A DNA stretch of 51,406 nt, filler included, from Porpidia crustulata (taxonomy: Eukaryota), in the NCBI GenBank assembly GCA_964255105.1. It is 3 parts of 3 records of this genome, joined end to end, with 100 filler letters (N's around TTAATTAATTAA, not from the genome) between each part and the next. Parts side by side here need not be neighbours in the genome. Positions count along the whole stretch, not along the records: positions 17,179 to 34,243 come from CAXUWE010000232.1; 2 more parts are not named here. The stretch is one strand, 5' to 3'. Position 1 is the stretch's first letter; every line of letters begins with the position of its first letter. Made by a program: the position numbers and the translations under genes. Shown piece after piece: positions 1 to 39,287 of the stretch. The notes beneath the pieces were generated by a model that was given only the letters and a program-made list of their open reading frames with translations, was not told where the DNA came from and ran no database searches.

Positions 1-3000
1 CCCCCATCACGCCCCGGTAATACTCCAAGCTCAGCTCCGTCGTCTTCTGCGAGTATCCGTCACGGGTAAGCGGCAAGCGCAGGATTTGAGAACGTTCGAT
101 GTCCTGTGTGTGATTGATTGATTAGCCTCCCCGTCCGGCAACATCCCATCCGTATCCGCAAAGTATGTATGTATAGGAAGACGCAAAAAAAAAAACGTAC
201 CATTTTCGCGCCCGCCTCGCCACTGACCATCCCGGCGACGAGCCCTCCCATCTCCTTGACCGCCACTTTTTCCAGGAATCCCTCTTCGCCCATGCCCCTC
301 GCGCTTCCTTGGCCCTCGCCGAAGCTCGGCAGTGTGCTGACCATGCGCCGCAGCGCCGCGCTTTTTTCCGCGCCTTGGATCCCGCTCACCAAAGATAGAT
401 AATCCGCATACACCTGTCCTCCTGCCGGCCATTCGTCCAGCTGATCTTTCCCTTTGCCGAAGCCGTTGAGGAGGCCCTGCAGCGTGGTGTGATCCTGCTC
501 GACAACGCACCGGGGCGCGACGCTGTGGATCATGGTCTCGTGCGCCGCTTCCCAATTTGCCGCTTGGAGGAGGTAATGGACTTCTTTCGCGTGGTCCTGC
601 AGCACGGAACGCGCATGCAGGGCTTTGGCTTCCCAGATCCAGGCGGCGGGGATTTTGAATTCGGTCGTCAGGGTTCGAAAGGCTGGGGAACTGGGACCCG
701 CGATCTTGGCGGCGTGGTGCGCGAGGATGTCCTGCAGAGCGCGCTGGCGCTGTTCGCGGTCGGAAAGATGAAGCAAGGCGAAGACGGCCCAGAGCCATTC
801 GCCCGCTGCGTCGAGCTGGGTGGCAAAGTCACTGGCGAGGTGGTCTGCTTTCGTGGCGTCGGCGGAGCGTGGAAAACGGAGGGCGAGGGAATGGTAGAGC
901 TGGAAGCTAAGGCGGAAGTCGAGAGGATTTCCGGTGACGTTGTGGGGAAGGACTATATCTGCGATGGATATGGGTTGTAGGGCACCTCCGGAAGAGGCGT
1001 AAAGCTTAAGGATGCCCCAGAGTAGGTCGACGCGTTGAGGGCCTGCTGGATCATTCCATGGGCGATTTGCTGAAGATTGTTCGATAAACCAGGGAACTGG
1101 TTTTTTGCTTTCATCATTGGTGAGGTCTTCGGCGAATGTCTTGACAGCGGCTTCAATGGGTTCTTCGGCGAGAATGGCGTACCAGAGCCGTAGACCGAAA
1201 GTACGTTTCCAATCTAGGTTGAAACGGTCACTGATGGTGAAGGTTCTTGCTCTGTCTTCCAAGGCCCCCTTCTTACCCTCGCAGATGCAAGTATTCCCGG
1301 CAAGCAGTCCGTACAAAGCTCGAATCGGCTCGGTCATTTCAGACAGAACATTCAGTTCTCGCCATTCGTGGATCTGGGCAGCCATGTCTTCGCGCATGAG
1401 ACGATCGCCGCCAAGCTGCGCCACGAGTATGGCTAATCTGAAGTTCCTGCCCTGAGCCAAAGCATCGCAAGCTTCGACGACTTTGTTTGCCGAAAGATAA
1501 GCCAAAGCACGTTCTTCAGCATTTGGAGCTGCAGCCACATCGTTTTCGGCTGCATCTTGACACAACTGTTCCCAGAATCTGCTAAAGCGATCTTTGCGGG
1601 CACGACTGTAGAATTCTGCCATATCTAGGTCCGGCTTGTTTGAAATGCTTTCGGATTCAAATAAGTCAGTCAAAAGAAATATCAAATCCCAAGTGTGTCT
1701 CTCATAGCTAGAGTCCTGCAGTAAGACAGACGCAATGTCCTTTGACGAGATATGTTGCGCTTGTGCCATGGGAACTCCACCATCAAGTACGAACTTAGTG
1801 ACAGTTCGTTGCTTGTTTAGTGTTTCCGGGATGGGCTGGATATAGATTTAGCAGATGTTCTTTGTTGTTGACCGTGACGGTAGTACTGGTGTTCTTACCT
1901 GCGTCGTCACCGCGAACTTTGCGAAGTGGACATCTCGACCTTCCGATACAAAGGTTCCTTTAACATCGTTCATGATGGCATCTGTTTGGGTAGACTTCAT
2001 AGGAAGTAGGTTGACTTTACTTGGCATTGCGTACAGTAATGTGGCTTCTGGGCCCCACGACGGTTTATAAGACTCATGGTATTTCCGATCCATCTCATTC
2101 ATGTCGACTTCGTCAAGGTTGATCGAGGATTTTGTATATGGCCACTAGAAGGAACGTCTACTCAGCTTTGCAATTCTTTCAATTTGATTCTACATACATG
2201 GGTAGAGGCAATTACACAATATTGTCAAAATTTGCAACATGATGAACACCACTACCGTGAAGGGTTAAAAGGAAAGAATCAAACCTCAAAGCCGTTGGTC
2301 TTCTTCTCCGCTTGTTTGGTTCCCAGGCCGCTCCTCCGCACGTGGTCTTGGCCAAAAAGCGAATTCATCAAATCAATGCTCGTCGCAAGTACCTGCCCAG
2401 TGCCGTTTGTCGTATTGTTTGCTTTCGGCGTGTCGTTATCCACGCTTTCTCGTTCATTCATGAGATGTGCCTGACTCTCGCGAAGGGCCAAACGATCCTG
2501 CTTCCTCGGACTAATAGTATTTTGTAGTTGCTGTGCCCATTCGTCGCAGCCATGAAACTCTAGCTTTCCTGGTGTATTGTATCCAGCGTAGCTTTGCTGG
2601 TGAGACCTCATGATCGACTTGGGCGTTGCATTGCCATGCGCGTTGAAGAGCTCAGTATCATCACCGCCTGGGTGGGGAAATGATCCTGCCATTTCCAAAT
2701 CTTCATCAAGCACCGTAAGAGATTGGTCTTGGACACTGTCAGCCGGGTTCTGGATTTCGCTTGGCTCATCTTCACCACTTTCTGAAGGTGAGGCGGCCAA
2801 GCGCTCGTCTAAAAAAGACTGGTCTTGATAGGCGACTCCCTCCATCTCTAGATCATCTTCAAAGGCGGCAGTGTCATCGAAGGCGCCTGGTAGAGCCTTT
2901 TTCTTTCGAAATTCGAACGTGTCATCTGGACTTGAGCTTGTCTGCGATTGATCATGCGAAAGAAAAGAGGAGTCTTGTGCTGATGCACCTGGAGTTGGAA

Positions 3001-6000
3001 TACGATTGATCCTTGGCGTTCGAGAATGTGGCGTTGGTGTATCTGGAGGCTCGCTTAGACCGCCCGTATGTAGGCTATCCCCTTCATTTCCTGTGTCGTC
3101 ATAGTCCAATTCATAAGTGGTGAAATGGGGTACTTTGAAAACCCATGTGCCTGTATCTTTTTCGTATCCTACAAACTCCGTTCCAATGACTTTTCGGAGA
3201 CGGTCAACATGCTTCTGGAAGCGCGGGCCACTCTTTTCATGGGAGGGCGTCTTCCGATCTTTCTGCCTTGGCCAGGAATTCTCTAGATAAATGGTGGATG
3301 GAACATTGAGACCCTTGCCAATGGGTGGTTTCTGATCTGATTCTGGATACACTGTGAGGGAGCGGGTGACGATCACAGCGATCTTACCAAAAATGCCGTT
3401 CAGATCGACGGTTGTCAGATCTACAGGTTCGTCGAATACGACACGACCGCACCCTTCGCGACCAACGCAAAACGATGTCATACTCTTCAGCTGCTGCTTA
3501 GGCATTTTATTAAGCTCTTCTCGCGAGGGGATCATGTAATACGCTCCTGGCTGTGAATCGGCTTGCGGGACTTGTGAGTGGGGTGGAAGAGCTGAAGTGG
3601 CCGGTATTTCTGGAGCGCCATCCTCATGTACGATGGCGAGCTCATTGCCTTTCACTTGCTCCATCTCAGGCTGTGGTGGAGCTCCGTTTGCCCGAGATCC
3701 GTTAGGTCTGCCATTTGGACGCGATGAGGATCTGAGGAAACCCTGCTCTTGGGCGGTTGGGTGCGAGTCGCTATTTGTACTACCATTGATACCGTTCATG
3801 TCGGTATTTGGCCCAGTCCCATTACCACCAATAGTACTAGCATCAAAGCTGACCTTTTTCTTTAAAATACCCGGCTGCCGAGATTGATCGTACTTCTCAG
3901 CGCTTGGAGCTGACGCAACGTCTTGGGTACCGAATAAGTCTGTTCGAAGGCTGCGATCAATGGTCAATTTCTTCAAACTTCCTGAATTTGATCCTGTGCG
4001 CGAGCTGCCGGCTGAAAACGCGCCGGGCGTGAGGATACTCTCTCGATCATGATCAAATGTTCGCCGAAGATTGCTTGTTGACAGACTCTTACCGAGGCCT
4101 CGTCCAATACTACCGTAGAGCAGACTGCTACCGAAGCCACCAGGAGTGCTGACATTACTCGAAACGCTGGATGGTGTTCCGTAGGTCGAATATGAGAATC
4201 CATAACCTCGTTTCTGTGGAGTCGCAAGTCGAGAGGCGGTATTGGGGTTAATCTTATAATGCGGCAGGATTGCGCTTTTCCTCATCTTATTACCTGTGTT
4301 AATGGGAGTTGCAAGAGGACCCGGATTGGATTGTGGTGGCGGTGGGAGACCGTCGAAAATCGATGCGCTGCCGTATGGATAACGATCTGTCAAAGACGCC
4401 GTCATAGTCTGAGGAGGTTGCAATGCGTTCTGCTGCTGTTGGGTGTTGCCGAAAAGACTGGATGCATTGTTCGAATTGCCAAAAAGACTGTTGGATTGCG
4501 GTTGCTGATTGTTTGACCCCAGGCCCCCAAAGAGAGAATTGGCAGCTGGCTGCTGAGCATTGTTGTTGGTGCCATTACCGAATAAGCTACTCCCGGTCGC
4601 TGCGTTGGTATTGCCGAACAGTCCTCCACCAGGCTTTTGCTGTGACTGATTGGCAGCTCCGAAGAGTCCCCCTCCAGCGTTTTGCTGAGTCTGATTGTTG
4701 TTATTGTTATTATTGGTACCCCCGAAGCCTCCAAAGAGACCAGTAGCTGCGTTATTTGTATTACTCGGGCCACTGCCAAATAGTCCAGTGCCCGCAGTGG
4801 TAGGCTTAGATGTACCGAAGAGTGAGGTTGTTGTGGGCTGGTTACTAGCCCCAAAGAGGCCTCCATTGGACGGCTGTTGTTGGCCATTAGCTTGGGTGTT
4901 GGAGCCAAATAGGCTGCCGCTCGTATTGTTCGCCGCCGTATTAGTCGCGCCGAACAGACCTCCCGGCTTTTGCTGTTGTCCACCAAAACCAGCAAAACCA
5001 GAGCCCGCCGGCGCCTGGGTTTGATTCTGCTGGTTGGAACCAAAAGCGCCGAAGGTATTCGTTGTTGCCGCAGGCTGCTGCTGCCCACCTCCGAACGCGG
5101 AGGGCGTTGAATTAGAGCCGAACAAGCCACCACCAGTATTGTTGGAAGTAGTAGCTGCTCCAAATCCTGCTCCAGACCCACCTCCCCCAAAGCTAGTACC
5201 TGAATTTCCACCTCCAAAAGGGAACCCGGAGGCCGGTTTCTGCTGTTGTGCATTACCACCAAACAGGCTTCCACCCGTACCAAATCCGGTGCCTGTGTTT
5301 TGTGCTCCACCGAAACCAGATTGCCCAGCAGTACCAAAGAGACCACCTGTTGTTTGGGATGTACTTGCAGGGGTAGCTCCAAATAGTCCAGGCGCAGCTG
5401 GCTTTTGGCCGAAGAGACTACCCCCACCAAATCCGGCACTCGCCGTTTGAGCAGCACCGAAAGGAGAAGCTGTGCTCGTAGGTTGACTCCCAAAAAGCCC
5501 TCCGCCTGTTTGTGCTGCGCCAAAAGGTCCAGACGAAGGTTGTTGGGCTCCAAAGCTACCAAATCCGCTACTGGTACCAAACGCTCCAGGCTGGCCGCTC
5601 GCATTACCGAAACGTCGGCCTTGGTTATAATCTGCAAGCCTCAGCTCCTACGATATATCAGCATTCGTTCTCACGGCCCGAACCGGAAAGACTTACTTCG
5701 AAAGAGAAGCTCTGGTAAGGCTGCATAAAACTAACGCTCTGAAAGTGATTGGTCTGATTGCCTGTGCCTTCTTTCTCGGTGAACGCCTGGAATGGAGTAC
5801 TGCCAGTGCCCTGGCATTCTGCGTTGGTGGTACTAAGGGCAGAGCTTACAGGCGCACCAAAAGCGCTAGTTGGCTGATTTGTCTGCGTTCCGAACCCTCC
5901 AGAACCCCCAAACAGACTCCCTCCAGAAGAGCTCTGGGCGCCGCCGAATGCTGGTTTATTAGCTGCACCAAAGAGGCCGCCAGGTGCATTGCTGGTAGTA

Positions 6001-8349: not shown

Positions 8350-8644
8350 CTTGGCTTCGTTATCCCGACAGGCCGAAAGATGTTTTGGTGATAGGTGGAT
8401 CTTCAATTGACAAAGATTACCAGGCGAAGATGAATAGCATTAAATCTAAGCTTTGAGGTGATCGATAACACTGCACCTTTGACATTTTGGGAAACGTCAC
8501 GTTGCATAAAAAACGGGCCGAACCGAATCGCAAGAACGCGTCGCGTATCCTTGGGTCTATGGCTGCATGGGTCCCCCTCCTACGATCAGTCACTACAAAA
8601 GTTCGAAATCTGTATAAACACGCATACCCTAAAATCCTGCAATT

Positions 8645-9360
8645 ATGGCAGCTTCAGCGCATTCTGCCTTTCCTCCGAGAACTTATGGCACAAATCAATT
8701 AGGGAAAATGCCAGACCGATCCCTCGGAGGGCCCTTTGGGGCATCGACGACACAGCAGGCGCGTGAAGCTCAACGAAAAGAAAGTGAACGCGAAAGGGCT
8801 GAGAAGGAGCGTATGGAGCGCGAAAAGCTAAATGGCCTTACGGAGGAGCAGAGAGAAGAAATTAAGGAGGCTGTGCGGTGACCACCTCATTGGTATCGGA
8901 ATGAATACTAATATTACGATATGCGTAGTTTACGCTATTCGACCTCGACAAAGACCAGAAGATCGATTATCATGAGCTCAAAGTTGCTATGAAAGCCCTC
9001 GGCTTTGATCTACCTAAATCAGACATCCTTTCTATTCTCCAGATGTACGGAACACCCTCCGACTCGCCATCTGCCAATGCACCTCATCAAAGCCGCCTAC
9101 TACTTTCATTCGCACAATTTCAAATCATCATGGCCGAGCGTATATCAGACCGGGATCCAGCGGATGAGATCCTGAGAGCCTTTGAGCTTTTTGATGAGGG
9201 CGGAAAGGGAAAAATCAATCTTCAAGATCTAAGGCGGGTGGCACGAGAGTTGGGCGAGGGTTTGGAGGAAGAGGAGCTAGCAGCTATGATCGATGAGTTT
9301 GATATGGACGGGGATGGGGCTATCAGCAAAGAGGAGTTTCTTGGAATATGCTTGCAATAA
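8645..9360 (+). CDS. CDC31: Centrin (EF-hand spindle pole body protein)
   Basis: [38 protein letters not shown]...[14 protein letters not shown]...[18 protein letters not shown]; one intron ending at 8928. Confidence 0.95.
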
Positions 9361-30530: not shown

Positions 30531-31640
30531 AGAGAGCTGAGACTCCCTTAGTGAGACGATTAAGCACTTCGCAAATTCAAACGAAAGGGAACATCAAGGG
30601 TGCGCTCTTTTCGATACCTGGGAACACTTGACCATGCAAATTTGCGCTCCAGATTCAGCTTCGCGTTCGATCTCGTCTTCCAATTTCCCTTCAAAGTTTG
30701 ATATCTTAGTCGCTATTCGCGCTTTTTCCACCGTTCTAGCAATAAAACCTCAGAATGCCGGACATCAGAAACCAGGCTGCTTGAGAGTGTGTATTACATT
30801 ACGGTAGTGCTGAGCGTTGTTGGTTTTACATGTACAAAGGACAATGATGCGATATGGCCCCACGCGTTGGCTGTAGTATCTTATGAAGCTCGAGAATCAG
30901 TGCTGAACCATCGTTGTCCTTGAAAAGAGAGAAGCATTTTGCATTCCCTCCTTCGCTCTTCTGCGTCCCATCTTGATCATCTTGACAGGTCGTCTACTTT
31001 GTTGATGTACCGTTTTATTTTACCAATAACACATGGCGACTCCCAACCTACTCGAGAAATATGCCTCTAGAACGATTGACAATAGACTATGCATTGTCAG
31101 AGAATGCTTCATCTCCAAAGCAATCTCTGAAGCGGTTGCCCCTGCCATCCAATAGCCCAGAAGACTCTCTGGGTGGTATGCTTGATCTTTCGCACCTTGA
31201 TTTCAGAAAATAAGCAGAAAATCAGAAATCTTCGAAGTTGGCCATGACACTAGAAAACTTTTGGTTTACTGTTTGCGATTTTTGAGTAGTGCGAGTGCGC
31301 CGAGAAGGCCTTTTGGGGTTTTGCCACGCCTGCGATTGATATCTCAGCAGACGGACTCCCCCCCGCAGTCCCCGATCGCGCATCACGGATATACCTTTGT
31401 AGAAGTTCTAGAACGCAGAGCAAAATTGTGGTCAATTTGTGGTCAATTTGTGCGTACAATTTGCGGTAATATTGTTGTGTAGAAATGACCGCCGCGAAGT
31501 ATTCCGTTGCCAGCCAGACCTGGGCCTTCTGCACTGCTTGTGCAAGAAAATAATTCCAGATCGAAAAGGCAAGTGAAATCGCAATTAGATTTGTTTTAAA
31601 ATAGATATATATTTACGGTATGACTCTTATTTTCACATTT

Positions 31641-31785
31641 GCGGCGATAGCTCAGTTTGGGAGAGCGTCAGGTACGATTGTCATCTTGCAGGGTGTTTGC
31701 ATTACTAATAATTCGTAGACTGAAGTCAACTTCGGTAATATTGAGCAAAATCTGAAGGCCGAGCGTTCGATCCGCTCTCGCCGCA
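31641..31785 (+). tRNA. tRNA-Phe(GAA): tRNA-Phe(GAA) with two introns: a 47-nt GT-AG spliceosomal-type intron at 30/31 (31672-31718) and a 24-nt canonical intron at 37/38 (31726-31749)
   Basis: Acceptor GCGGCGA/TCGCCGC+A; D stem GCTC/GAGC; anticodon stem TCAG^A/TCTGA; loop CT-GAA-G^A; T stem GAGCG/CGCTC with loop TTCGATC. Removing both inserts gives a 74-nt cloverleaf with all four stems Watson-Crick paired. Confidence 0.93.
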
Positions 31786-31798
31786 TTCAAAACGTTAA

Positions 31799-31805
31799 TT
31801 TTTTT
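31799..31805 (+). terminator. Pol III oligo-T terminator of tRNA-Phe
   Basis: T7 run 13 nt after the discriminator base; it is the first run of 4 or more T from the tRNA start. Confidence 0.8.
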
Positions 31806-32022
31806 CTCTATTTCAGATGATGATCAATAAGCAGAATTCCCCATCGTCTTTCTATGCGCGAAACTTGGCATTGATTGAAATGACCAGATTAGGCATCTCT
31901 TCGTCTACTTGCTGCAGAAACTGGGGGGCGCTAGGACAGATTACACGTGATCTGAATTAGCAGCGATTTTATCGGCAGGAAAAACTTCCCTAGGCCTAAG
32001 ATACGATCTTGTTCCCAAGAAC

Positions 32023-36369: not shown

Positions 36370-39287
36370 TCATTCCAAAAGTCCGACTACCTTCCTCAAC
36401 ACCTCCTCCACCCCCTTTCGTTGATTGTCCGGATCCTTCGCAACCCCCTGCCAAACCTCTCCATGCCTCGGCTCACTGATCACGCACTTCCCTATCACGT
36501 CTTCCCTCTTCTCCTCCATCCCGTGCTGCACCAGGAATTTGTAATACCACGCCCACGTATCCCCGTTGTCCGCATCTAGAACAATCGCCTTTTCAAACCA
36601 ATTCGCCGCCTTCTCCAACCGGCGCTCACCCCAGAACACCCGCGCCACGGTCACGAATAGTATTGGATCGTTATCGCACTTCTTGATGGCTTCAAGGGAT
36701 CGCGGTTTGCGTTGTGTGCGCGGCTCGAGGTGCCAAATGCTTTCGCTCCAAAGGAGGCCGCTGTTGGGGATTTCCTGGAGCGCTTTGGCCATGAGAACTT
36801 TCGCTTGCGCTACATTCTTGGCCCGGCGCTCGACACGCACACTCTCAGTCCAGAGTTCGGGACTCTTAGGTACAGCGAGGCGGGCACGATCTAGCATGCT
36901 TCGGGCCTTGACCACAACCCCAGCGTTTTCCTCGAGGCGAGAGGCAAGCAGCCAGAGTGGGATGGAAGTGGGGCAGGCACGCGTACCGGTGTTGAAGGCT
37001 TCGCGGGCTTGGGGGAGCTTATTAAGGGCTGAATAGATTTGGCCTTTGATCATCCAGAGTTTTGCGGCTTTGGGGTAGAGTTGAAGGCCTTGATTCACGA
37101 GGTCGAGGGCGACGTCGATGTTGCCGAGTTGTCGCTCAAAGGCAACGGATTTGATCCAGACGCGGTCGGTGCCGGCGGCTTGGCGGGCGGTTTGGAGAAG
37201 CTCGCGGGCTTTGGCGGTCTGATCGTTGTCGGCTTCAAGTTTGACGGCGGCAAGCCAGATGTTCTCGGAATTTGGATTCTGGGCAAAGGCGTCGGAAAGG
37301 ACTTTGCGGGCATCATTAATGGAGCCGGATTGAAGCTTCTCCTTTGAGAGGAGCATCCATAATTCTTCGGATTGGGGAACTGCTTCAACCGCTTTTTGAA
37401 GCACTTGTAGAAGCGCTTCTTTGGTGCCGTGATTTCGTTCGAGGTCTGCGGCTGCTGAATAGACTGATTTGCTGGTGACGAAGATTCTTAATGCGTAGGC
37501 GTAGATGGCTCTTGCCGTTTCGTACTTTCCTCGGCCAATGCTGGATTTGGCATCATCTACCCATATGGCTTTCCTATCGTCTTCTTCTTCATCTAGACCG
37601 TAGCCAAGTGTTTCCTTGACGATTGCTCCACACGTCAAAATTGCGCCCTCTTCCTCGCACTTCTCTGCCTCTGTGATCCAGTCTTCTCTTGGTAACATAG
37701 CGCCCTCACGAACCAGCGAAGCGACAGCGCGGCGCATCACGTTGACTTTGCCAGCATTCCCCATCTGTTCCTGCAATCTTGCTCCAGCGATCCATATTTC
37801 ATGACTGGTGGGGATTTTTTGGCGGCCCTTATTGAGTACTTTTTGCGCATTCTCTGGTGTTTCAAGTCTCGCCAATGCAAGCACTAGGTCGACTGACATT
37901 GGTACCTCTTCCGTAGCTTTTGCAAGCAGCAAACGAGCATCTGCAGGATCTTCCTCTAAGTTTACCGCCTCCTTCCACAAAGCAGCGGAATGCGGTAGGA
38001 TGTCAAGAGCTCGACGCAAGACTCGTTTCTTTGCCTTCAGGTCTTCTTCAAGTTTCATAGCTTCAACCCAGAGCCGGATTGATTGTGGGTTATTCGATAT
38101 TGCATTTGCTGCGATGATCTTTGCATTATGGTTCTCGTTCAGGCGCATGGACTCCAGCCATGCGTCTTCCGACTTGGGGCAGATTATGACAGCTTGCGCC
38201 ATGATTTTCCTCGCCGCCACAATCTTTCCTGCAACTTCCTCTAATCGAGCTGCAGCAATATGGCCTGGTGCATGTTTGGGGTTGGTCTGTATTACTGAAG
38301 ATAACAAAGCCCGTACCCGATTGATGTCGCCCATCTCTGCCTCCCCAACTTTAACTTCGGATTTCGAGAGGCTGGTGAGATAGCCTTTTGGGTCGATGTT
38401 CGTGGCAGTCCCCGCCGTAGATTCTATCCCCGAACCCTGGGCTGCTTGGTCTAATCGAACCTGTAGTACTTTATCTCGCGCGGCACCAATATCTGCAAAA
38501 TTTGTCATTGTGCCGTCCGCGCTATCCCCCGATCCGTTCGTCGCAGCTCCATCATCGTTCACACTGGTATCAAATTGTGTCGAGTCTCTTGCACCGGCAA
38601 TAACGCTATCTGGGACTGCGTAGAATCGTTGCCGCAGATTCTGCTTGGTTCTTCTGTTCTTCCCAGTAAGATCCCCAACCTCAGGTATGTTCGCCCAATC
38701 TTCGTCCGACACGCTTGCAAGACTTCGTTTTAGGTCGGCAAATTGCTGTTGAATTTTTGGATTGTTGGCCTCATGTTCCTTCCGTTCCTGAGCTTCGCGC
38801 GCTTCCCTATACGTGATCGGCTTCAAGTCGGCAATCTGTGCTTCCAAAAACAAAGTATATGATAAACCATCTGCTTCAACAACGAGAGGATGATTAGGGT
38901 GGGGACCATGAGAAGGGAGACAAACCTTCTAATTTTACGCCGTCTGTCCATTTTCTCATCCACCTCCTGATATATCCTGTCGGCCTCATCGTCATCTCGG
39001 TCATAGGCACCATTAGCGAAAAGTCCGACCTCGTTCTCGGGGTCTTGGAAGCGTTCGTCATCATCATCGGGCTCTTCCTTCTTCTCCGGTGCCCCGTATG
39101 CGGTTGGTGGCGCTGCTCCAAGCTGCGCTGCACGTTTAGAAAGAGCTAACTTGATTTGTTCTTCACTTGGGCCTTCTCTGGCTGGTCCAAGATCTGAACG
39201 TGTGGTGAAACCGGTAGCACCTCTTCCCAGTCCAGCCACGTAGTTCTCTGGCGCTTGCTGCGACAAGAAGTCCTTGCGCCCAGACAT
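36370..39287 (-). CDS. PRP6: U4/U6.U5 tri-snRNP splicing factor Prp6 (S. pombe Prp1)
   Basis: PENYVAGLGRGATGFTTRSDLGPAR N-terminus and HAT/TPR repeats; intron 38807-38925. Confidence 0.97.

Follow-up and report, generated by a model that had tools for sequence, protein, structure and literature searches.

A candidate spliceosomal-type intron beside the canonical tRNA intron in a fungal tRNA-Phe(GAA) gene

Introduction

How might a tRNA gene still deliver its product when its anticodon stem is split by an insert bearing the signals of an mRNA intron? The question is raised by a locus of Porpidia crustulata lying in the window, by which we mean the whole stretch of 51,406 nucleotides of DNA analyzed here. 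A first-pass annotation of this stretch had proposed that a tRNA-Phe gene in it is interrupted both by its normal tRNA intron and by a second intron of the spliceosomal, GT–AG type. Textbooks and current reviews, including PMC12530127 and PMC10275265 to the extent of their available text, keep spliceosomal and tRNA introns apart; the proposal brings together two processing systems in one small RNA. Here we dissect the gene, weigh the alternative origins and fates of the insert against the evidence that bears on each of them, and compare the locus with the known cases of introns in unexpected places.

Results

Read directly from the sequence, the tRNA-Phe(GAA) gene occupies positions 31641–31785 of the plus strand as a 145-nt unit with exons of 31, 7 and 36 nt. 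Exon 1 (31641–31671) furnishes the 5′ strand of the acceptor stem, the D arm and anticodon-stem positions 27–30, and ends in TCAG. It is followed by the 47-nt spliceosomal-type insert (31672–31718), which falls at tRNA position 30/31 in the 5′ strand of the anticodon stem. This insert opens with GTACGA (31672–31677), contains a branch-like TACTAAT (31703–31709), whose A at 31708 lies 10 nt before the insert end, and closes with a TAG (31716–31718) preceded by CG, i.e., CGTAG. Exon 2 (31719–31725) is a micro-exon of merely 7 nt, ACTGAAG, comprising positions 31–37 and thus the anticodon GAA. The second intron, of 24 nt (31726–31749), is the canonical tRNA intron at 37/38 and contains CTTCGG; its CTTC is complementary to the GAAG of the anticodon region, and in folding calculations GAAG and CUUC pair once the cloverleaf is enforced. 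Exon 3 (31750–31785) completes the gene with the 3′ strand of the anticodon stem, a 5-nt variable loop, the T arm, the 3′ strand of the acceptor stem and the discriminator A.

When both inserts are deleted in a script, ARAGORN recognizes a tRNA-Phe(gaa) of 74 nt whose four stems are completely paired: the cloverleaf has stems of 7, 4, 5 and 5 bp, U33, the anticodon GAA and G37, as is proper to a nuclear tRNA-Phe. With both taken out, the exons show no mismatch, and neither the promoter nor the terminator has a defect. The internal A box (31648–31660, within exon 1) and B box (31765–31773, within exon 3), assigned by consensus motifs, together with a downstream T run, correspond by sequence to the layout of a nuclear Pol III type 2 tRNA gene. 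The terminator-like run of seven T's (31799–31805) starts 14 nt past the 3′ end of the tRNA. On the other flank, a TATA-like tract, TATATATTTA (31606–31615, plus strand), is read directly at about 26–35 nt 5′ of the tRNA start and might serve Pol III as a promoter element. T's run to at most 3 in the 47-nt insert and 2 in the 24-nt intron; hence, neither reaches the run of 4 T's at which Pol III would stop. The tRNA-Phe gene sits between protein genes and is free of overlap with any long reading frame. Inspection of the sequence and the ARAGORN run thus bear out, in letters and coordinates, what the first-pass annotation had said of the gene's anatomy: the insert at 30/31 with GTACGA, TACTAAT and TAG and its want of a T run of 4 or more, the separate 24-nt intron at 37/38 with CTTCGG, the perfect pairing of every stem upon removal of both, and the intact A and B boxes, TATA-like tract and T7 terminator.

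That annotation had also warned that standard tools may overlook such a gene or call it a pseudogene; we found it overlooked or mislabelled. ARAGORN with default settings reports zero tRNAs in the entire 51-kb window, and Rfam at its gathering thresholds returns nothing for the window; when E-values up to 10 are admitted for 31400–32000, Rfam gives three weak unrelated matches and no tRNA. With introns allowed, ARAGORN assigns the wrong amino acid, labelling 31640–31786 as a tRNA-Leu(caa) with a single 71-nt intron at 34/35. Even upon deletion of the 47-nt insert alone, it still prefers Leu(caa) and misplaces the 24-nt intron to 34/35. We rejected this single-intron tRNA-Leu(caa) because it needs a G33 and a non-canonical intron site at 34/35, and has no long variable arm. 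The locus thereby exposes a blind spot of tRNA finders and calls for caution in automatic annotation.

One explanation of the insert would be an artefact, in which faulty assembly or sequencing, or else a chimeric join, had placed 47 foreign bases into a normal tRNA-Phe gene. The stretch is indeed known from a single sequencing run, X1, which is possibly the window's own source. Against an artefact, an independently assembled contig of that run from Logan (17,006 nt, depth 11.5) covers 31541–31885 with 0 differences, and over this range it has neither joints nor loose ends. If X1 supplied the source reads of the window, this agreement excludes a slip of assembly but does not amount to an independent sample. 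Two further runs of the same study from other organisms (X2 and X3) have no match to the stretch at 80% likeness, a result that does not bear on expression or absence. Moreover, precise splice signals are not what an artefact would be expected to produce, and we consider an origin of this kind scarcely credible.

The splice signals of the insert are far beyond chance. A signal set defined as GT, G at +5, CTRAY 6–35 nt from the end and AG occurs at a frequency of 9.0e-5 among 2,000,000 random 47-mers and of 5.8e-5 among the 102,718 real 47-mers of the window. The boundary of the insert can be drawn at 30/31 or, if slid, at 29/30 or 32/33; once two or three such registers are allowed for, the chance is about 2e-4. 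A search of the window for a second copy of the insert, as might be left by a repeat or an introner, returned only the insert itself at up to 3 mismatches. Further, we deleted in turn each of 7,598 GT(G+5)…AG segments of 30–120 nt on both strands of the window and reran ARAGORN: all 7 of the resulting tRNA calls were at this locus. Thus, deletion of such segments does not by itself create spurious tRNAs, and the window holds no further case.

We next compare the insert with the mRNA introns of the same genome. A heuristic bridging open reading frames yielded 173 overlapping intron candidates, from which plausible ones were chosen by eye from their signals; among the candidates, only the intron of the centrin gene is frame-verified. 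That gene is split over the frames 8633–8881 and 8929–9360, which join across an intron of 56 nt (8873–8928, plus strand) of the form GTGCGG…TACTAAT…CGTAG, with an unusual 5′ site. Donors of the GTRCGR type are, therefore, in use in this genome, as the frame-verified centrin intron attests, and the likeness in TACTAAT…CGTAG to which the first-pass annotation had drawn attention is correct. Aligned 5′ ends read GTACGAT in the tRNA insert, GTGCGGT in centrin and GTACGGT in a second tRNA gene, L077, described below. Of the 173 candidates, those chosen by eye as plausible measure 49–68 nt and have a CTRAY motif 7–17 nt upstream of the acceptor. The branch motif of the insert falls inside this 7–17-nt range and its TAG is a YAG acceptor, while at the other end it has the 5′ GT, the G at +5 and the complementarity to U1 that are expected of a U2-type intron: by our own count against the U1 5′ end, the CAG|GTACGA junction is complementary at 7 of 9 positions. 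Two features are less typical. At 47 nt the insert is slightly short against the 49–68 nt of the introns chosen by eye, and GTACGA is not the commonest 5′ hexamer among the candidates, where GTAAGT and GTATGT lead.

The insert might instead be an ectopic intron of the tRNA type, whose removal would fall to a protein endonuclease, be it that of tRNA splicing or another, and a ligase. Precedents, as far as the available text of PMC3728597 describes them, are a cryptomonad nucleomorph and the multiple-intron tRNAs of Cyanidioschyzon merolae, among them a two-intron nuclear tRNA-Phe which is handled wholly by the endonuclease pathway. For every pair of cut sites we scored the strict or relaxed bulge–helix–bulge (BHB) structure, in which 3-nt bulges containing the cuts flank a central helix of 4 bp. 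At the boundaries of the insert the central helix forms only 0, 1 and 2 of 4 pairs in the three registers, and at the L077 insert 2, 0 and 2 of 4; thus, these scores rule out a BHB or relaxed BHB at the insert ends, in any of the three registers of either gene. The same source, in its available portion, reports that most ectopic introns of that nucleomorph form no BHB, so that the absence of one is not absolute proof (PMC3728597). In the minimum-energy fold, also, a helix with UCAG/CUGA pairing at its flank joins the ends of the insert. This predicted UACGA/UCGUA pairing of the insert ends would partly hide the 5′ site, and the fold has a z of −1.0 against shuffles; as a whole, the minimum-energy folds of the precursor and its intermediates are not better than those of shuffled sequences and contain no cloverleaves, and hence carry no information. 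Position likewise argues against an endonuclease-cut intron: the eukaryotic enzyme, including that of fungi, is held in the available text of PMC3728597 to depend on the 37/38 intron position, measured from the mature domain. The 24-nt intron lies at 37/38, whereas the 47-nt insert lies 7 nt nearer the body of the tRNA. Finally, the conjunction of GT, G at +5, TACTAAT and TAG would be left unexplained, as would the GT…AG of L077. Accordingly, removal of the insert by a protein-only pathway is unlikely, and we assign an ectopic tRNA-type intron a low probability.

The surroundings of the gene point to its host. Window proteins, namely Nup98-96, a DUF7730 protein, a RabGAP and Prp6, are those of a Pezizomycotina fungus. 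Prp6 (36373–38853, minus strand) is 92% identical to a JGI protein (P0001), 79–80% identical to its counterparts in lichen-forming fungi (Pleopsidium, Pseudocyphellaria, Lobaria, Sticta, Xylographa and others) and 75–77% identical to those of other Pezizomycotina. By this approximate measure of protein similarity, the host appears to resemble lichen-forming fungi and would belong to the same or a neighboring lineage. Rfam detects no rDNA or snRNA genes in the window. Several side observations concern the neighboring genes. The Prp6/Prp1 splicing-factor gene is colinear with its 828-aa homologue P0001 and intronless over that length; its neighbors are intron-rich. The distance from the tRNA-Phe gene to Prp6 is 4.6 kb in the window. 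The Nup98-96 gene (autopeptidase S59 plus Nup96; 60–5604, minus strand) runs through at least 3 reading frames, implying several short introns, and one candidate for such an intron (5648–5696) reads GTAAGT…TGCTGAT…CGTAG. Right after the tRNA terminator, 31811–31880 on the plus strand is a weak C/D-box snoRNA-like stretch, which scores 17.2 bits against Rfam SNORD101 (gathering score 47, E = 1.8). It has a C box ATGATGA (31817–31823) and the complementary ends TTTCAG and TTGAAA, with TTGA where a D box CTGA is expected; it may be a tRNA-linked snoRNA or a product of chance.

Is the insert without parallel? We scanned metagenome contigs for the end of a tRNA-Phe D arm, a gap of 35–65 nt after position 30 and ACTGAAG, a pattern that does not require GT or AG. 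At least 120 loci matched and, among the matches listed, filtering and ARAGORN left one tRNA-Phe, L077; of the other 119 listed, one holds an unrelated tRNA-Ala and the rest have no ARAGORN tRNA. As a control of specificity, the same type of pattern yielded 0 tRNA-Phe genes from 116 loci, 5 in prokaryote genomes and 111 in viral contigs. The L077 tRNA-Phe(GAA) gene (382–489 of its contig, plus strand) carries a 35-nt insert (412–446) exactly at 30/31 that starts with GTACGG, ends with AACAG and is otherwise unrelated in sequence to the insert of the window. Its exons are intact, its acceptor and T stems are quite different from those of the window gene, it has no intron at 37/38, and it is followed by runs of five and seven T's as a terminator. 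The flanks contain no frame longer than 94 aa. By eye, its insert has no T run of 4 or more and no CTRAY or yUnAy branch motif. A GT…AG with G at +5 is expected by chance about once in 1,000. As the L077 insert is only 35 nt and is devoid of a branch motif, it makes a poorer case for a full spliceosomal intron than for a recurrence of GT–AG at 30/31. The first-pass annotation had suggested looking for other tRNAs split by GT–AG inserts: among the matches listed, L077 has such an insert at the very same site, but one without the branch motif. Beyond the listed metagenome loci there may be tRNA-Phe genes with inserts at 30/31 that are not of the GT–AG form.

L077 bears on the most serious alternative, namely that the window gene is a dead copy. 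To elaborate, if there are several tRNA-Phe genes, one of them could have received intron-derived DNA at an AG|A site, for instance by reverse splicing into the tRNA, with reverse transcription and recombination to follow, or by repair-mediated insertion. It would remain unspliced, leaving the anticodon stem broken, and would be neutral since other genes supply tRNA-Phe. An insert that truly descends from an intron would have perfect signals even if it were never removed; therefore, the rarity of the signals does not separate a dead copy from a functional intron. The failure of default ARAGORN and of the Rfam tRNA model to find the gene is what a broken gene would produce, and intact exons are compatible with a recent insertion. 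On the opposing side, the gene has neither an exon mismatch nor a promoter or terminator defect, and T's never run to 4 in either the window or the L077 insert. Furthermore, the very divergent L077 has a different GT…AG insert at the same site, with exons and terminator equally intact, which is unlikely for two independent dead copies. We hence hold an unspliced dead copy to be a genuine but lesser possibility.

Discussion

Taken together, the rarity of the signal combination, the frame-verified centrin intron, the lack of a BHB, the failure of the finders and the GT…AG at 30/31 of L077 support the label "spliceosomal-type" that the first-pass annotation had given to the insert. The explanation we favor, with confidence that is evenly balanced, is that of a live nuclear tRNA-Phe(GAA) gene with two introns of different kinds, the 47-nt one being spliceosomal. 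What we infer here extends to transcription, dependence on the spliceosome, a two-step order of processing and function of the gene. Briefly, we advance the following plausible course of events. Pol III would transcribe the gene from the A and B boxes, possibly helped by the TATA-like tract, and stop at the T7 run. The 47-nt insert would then be removed by the spliceosome as a U2-type GT–AG intron: CAG|GTACGA would pair with U1, A31708 of TACTAAT would form the lariat, TAG| would serve as the acceptor, and G30 would be joined to A31. The route would be the same as that of the mRNA-type intron of fission-yeast U6 and of the ectopic spliceosomal introns of lichen rDNA. Removal of the insert would rebuild the anticodon stem, giving an ordinary intron-containing pre-tRNA-Phe, from which the tRNA splicing endonuclease and ligase would take out the 24-nt intron at 37/38. 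We propose this order because the insert interrupts the stem along which the endonuclease measures. In budding yeast, nuclear steps come first and the tRNA endonuclease works afterwards, in the cytoplasm. Counting against the proposal, Pol III transcripts of animal cells are poor splicing substrates. The lineage of the host, as far as protein similarity places it, fits a spliceosomal reading of the insert because lichen fungi carry ectopic spliceosomal introns in their Pol I-transcribed rDNA.

Should the insert really be spliced, no tRNA before this one would have been found to depend on the spliceosome. The tRNAs would join the non-coding RNAs with spliceosomal introns and become the second kind of Pol III transcript seen to be handled by the spliceosome, and the pre-tRNA would offer a natural case of a substrate requiring the two splicing systems one after the other. 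Intron gain through reverse splicing into abundant RNAs would also find support. A spliced insert would further fit the idea, put forward in the available text of PMC8527467, that lichen fungi use ectopic introns to slow their ribosome and translation capacity. A bolder extension, which we regard as rather doubtful, is that spliceosomal introns at 30/31 are an overlooked recurrent or ancient class in distant eukaryotes, and that every tRNA-Phe(GAA) gene here carries one. If it were true of every such gene, the decoding of phenylalanine would depend on the spliceosome, with one tRNA passing through two machineries in a fixed order; genes of this kind would be invisible to tRNAscan-type tools, and the tRNA repertoires of whole lineages would be mis-annotated.

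As to precedence, the first-pass annotation knew of no described spliceosomal intron in a tRNA, a claim that has survived a search of the full-text literature and two large reviews, as far as their available text reaches. Within that full-text scope, outside of which most subscription journals lie, no description of a spliceosomal intron in a tRNA gene was found, and the available portions of PMC12530127, PMC5855946, PMC10275265, PMC13578239, PMC4033280, PMC3728597 and PMC8527467 make no mention of one. The non-coding RNAs named with spliceosomal introns in the accessible part of PMC5855946 are U6 (transcribed by Pol III), U2, U5, U1 and rRNA.

Against this backdrop, the two introns of the gene have different affinities. 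In yeast pre-tRNA-Phe, the 37/38 intron pairs with the anticodon region. The 24-nt intron matches this canonical fungal form in its position at 37/38 and its CTTC pairing, whereas the 47-nt insert, which lies 7 nt farther upstream and within the stem, does not. The closest parallel to the latter is the mRNA-type intron in the U6 snRNA gene of S. pombe and other fungi (Tani & Ohshima 1989, 1991, as cited in the available text of PMC5855946). Both are short GT–AG introns with a branch site in a small structured Pol III RNA gene of a fungus, spliceosomal removal would be needed before the RNA functions, and an origin by reverse splicing has been proposed. The two differ in that the host of the present insert is a tRNA rather than a component of the spliceosome at its catalytic center, and in that it is accompanied by a second intron of another class. 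Further, the splicing of U6 has been experimentally shown, whereas that of the tRNA-Phe insert is proposed from its sequence.

A second parallel is furnished by the ectopic spliceosomal introns in the nuclear rDNA of lichen-forming ascomycetes (Bhattacharya et al. 2000, as cited in the available portions of PMC8527467 and PMC5855946), one of which, according to the former, budding yeast spliced out of Pol I transcripts. These resemble the insert in being small (e.g., 57 bp), in residing in a non-coding RNA gene that is not transcribed by Pol II and, by protein similarity, in coming from the same or a neighboring lineage; unlike it, they belong to Pol I transcripts and rRNA with no second, tRNA-type splicing system, in place of Pol III and a tRNA. 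From the side of the tRNAs, the nuclear tRNAs of C. merolae have multiple and ectopic BHB introns, including a two-intron tRNA-Phe(GAA) whose ectopic intron is removed first, as the available text of PMC3728597 relates. That gene likewise has one intron at 37/38 and another elsewhere, with the ectopic-first order described there being the one proposed here. As far as that text goes, however, the C. merolae introns are of the BHB or relaxed BHB type and cut by the endonuclease, whereas the insert of the window has no BHB and bears spliceosomal signals. Thus, while introns of this type are known in other RNA genes not transcribed by Pol II, what appears to be new here, judging from these signals, is a spliceosomal-type intron in a tRNA, side by side with the canonical tRNA intron.
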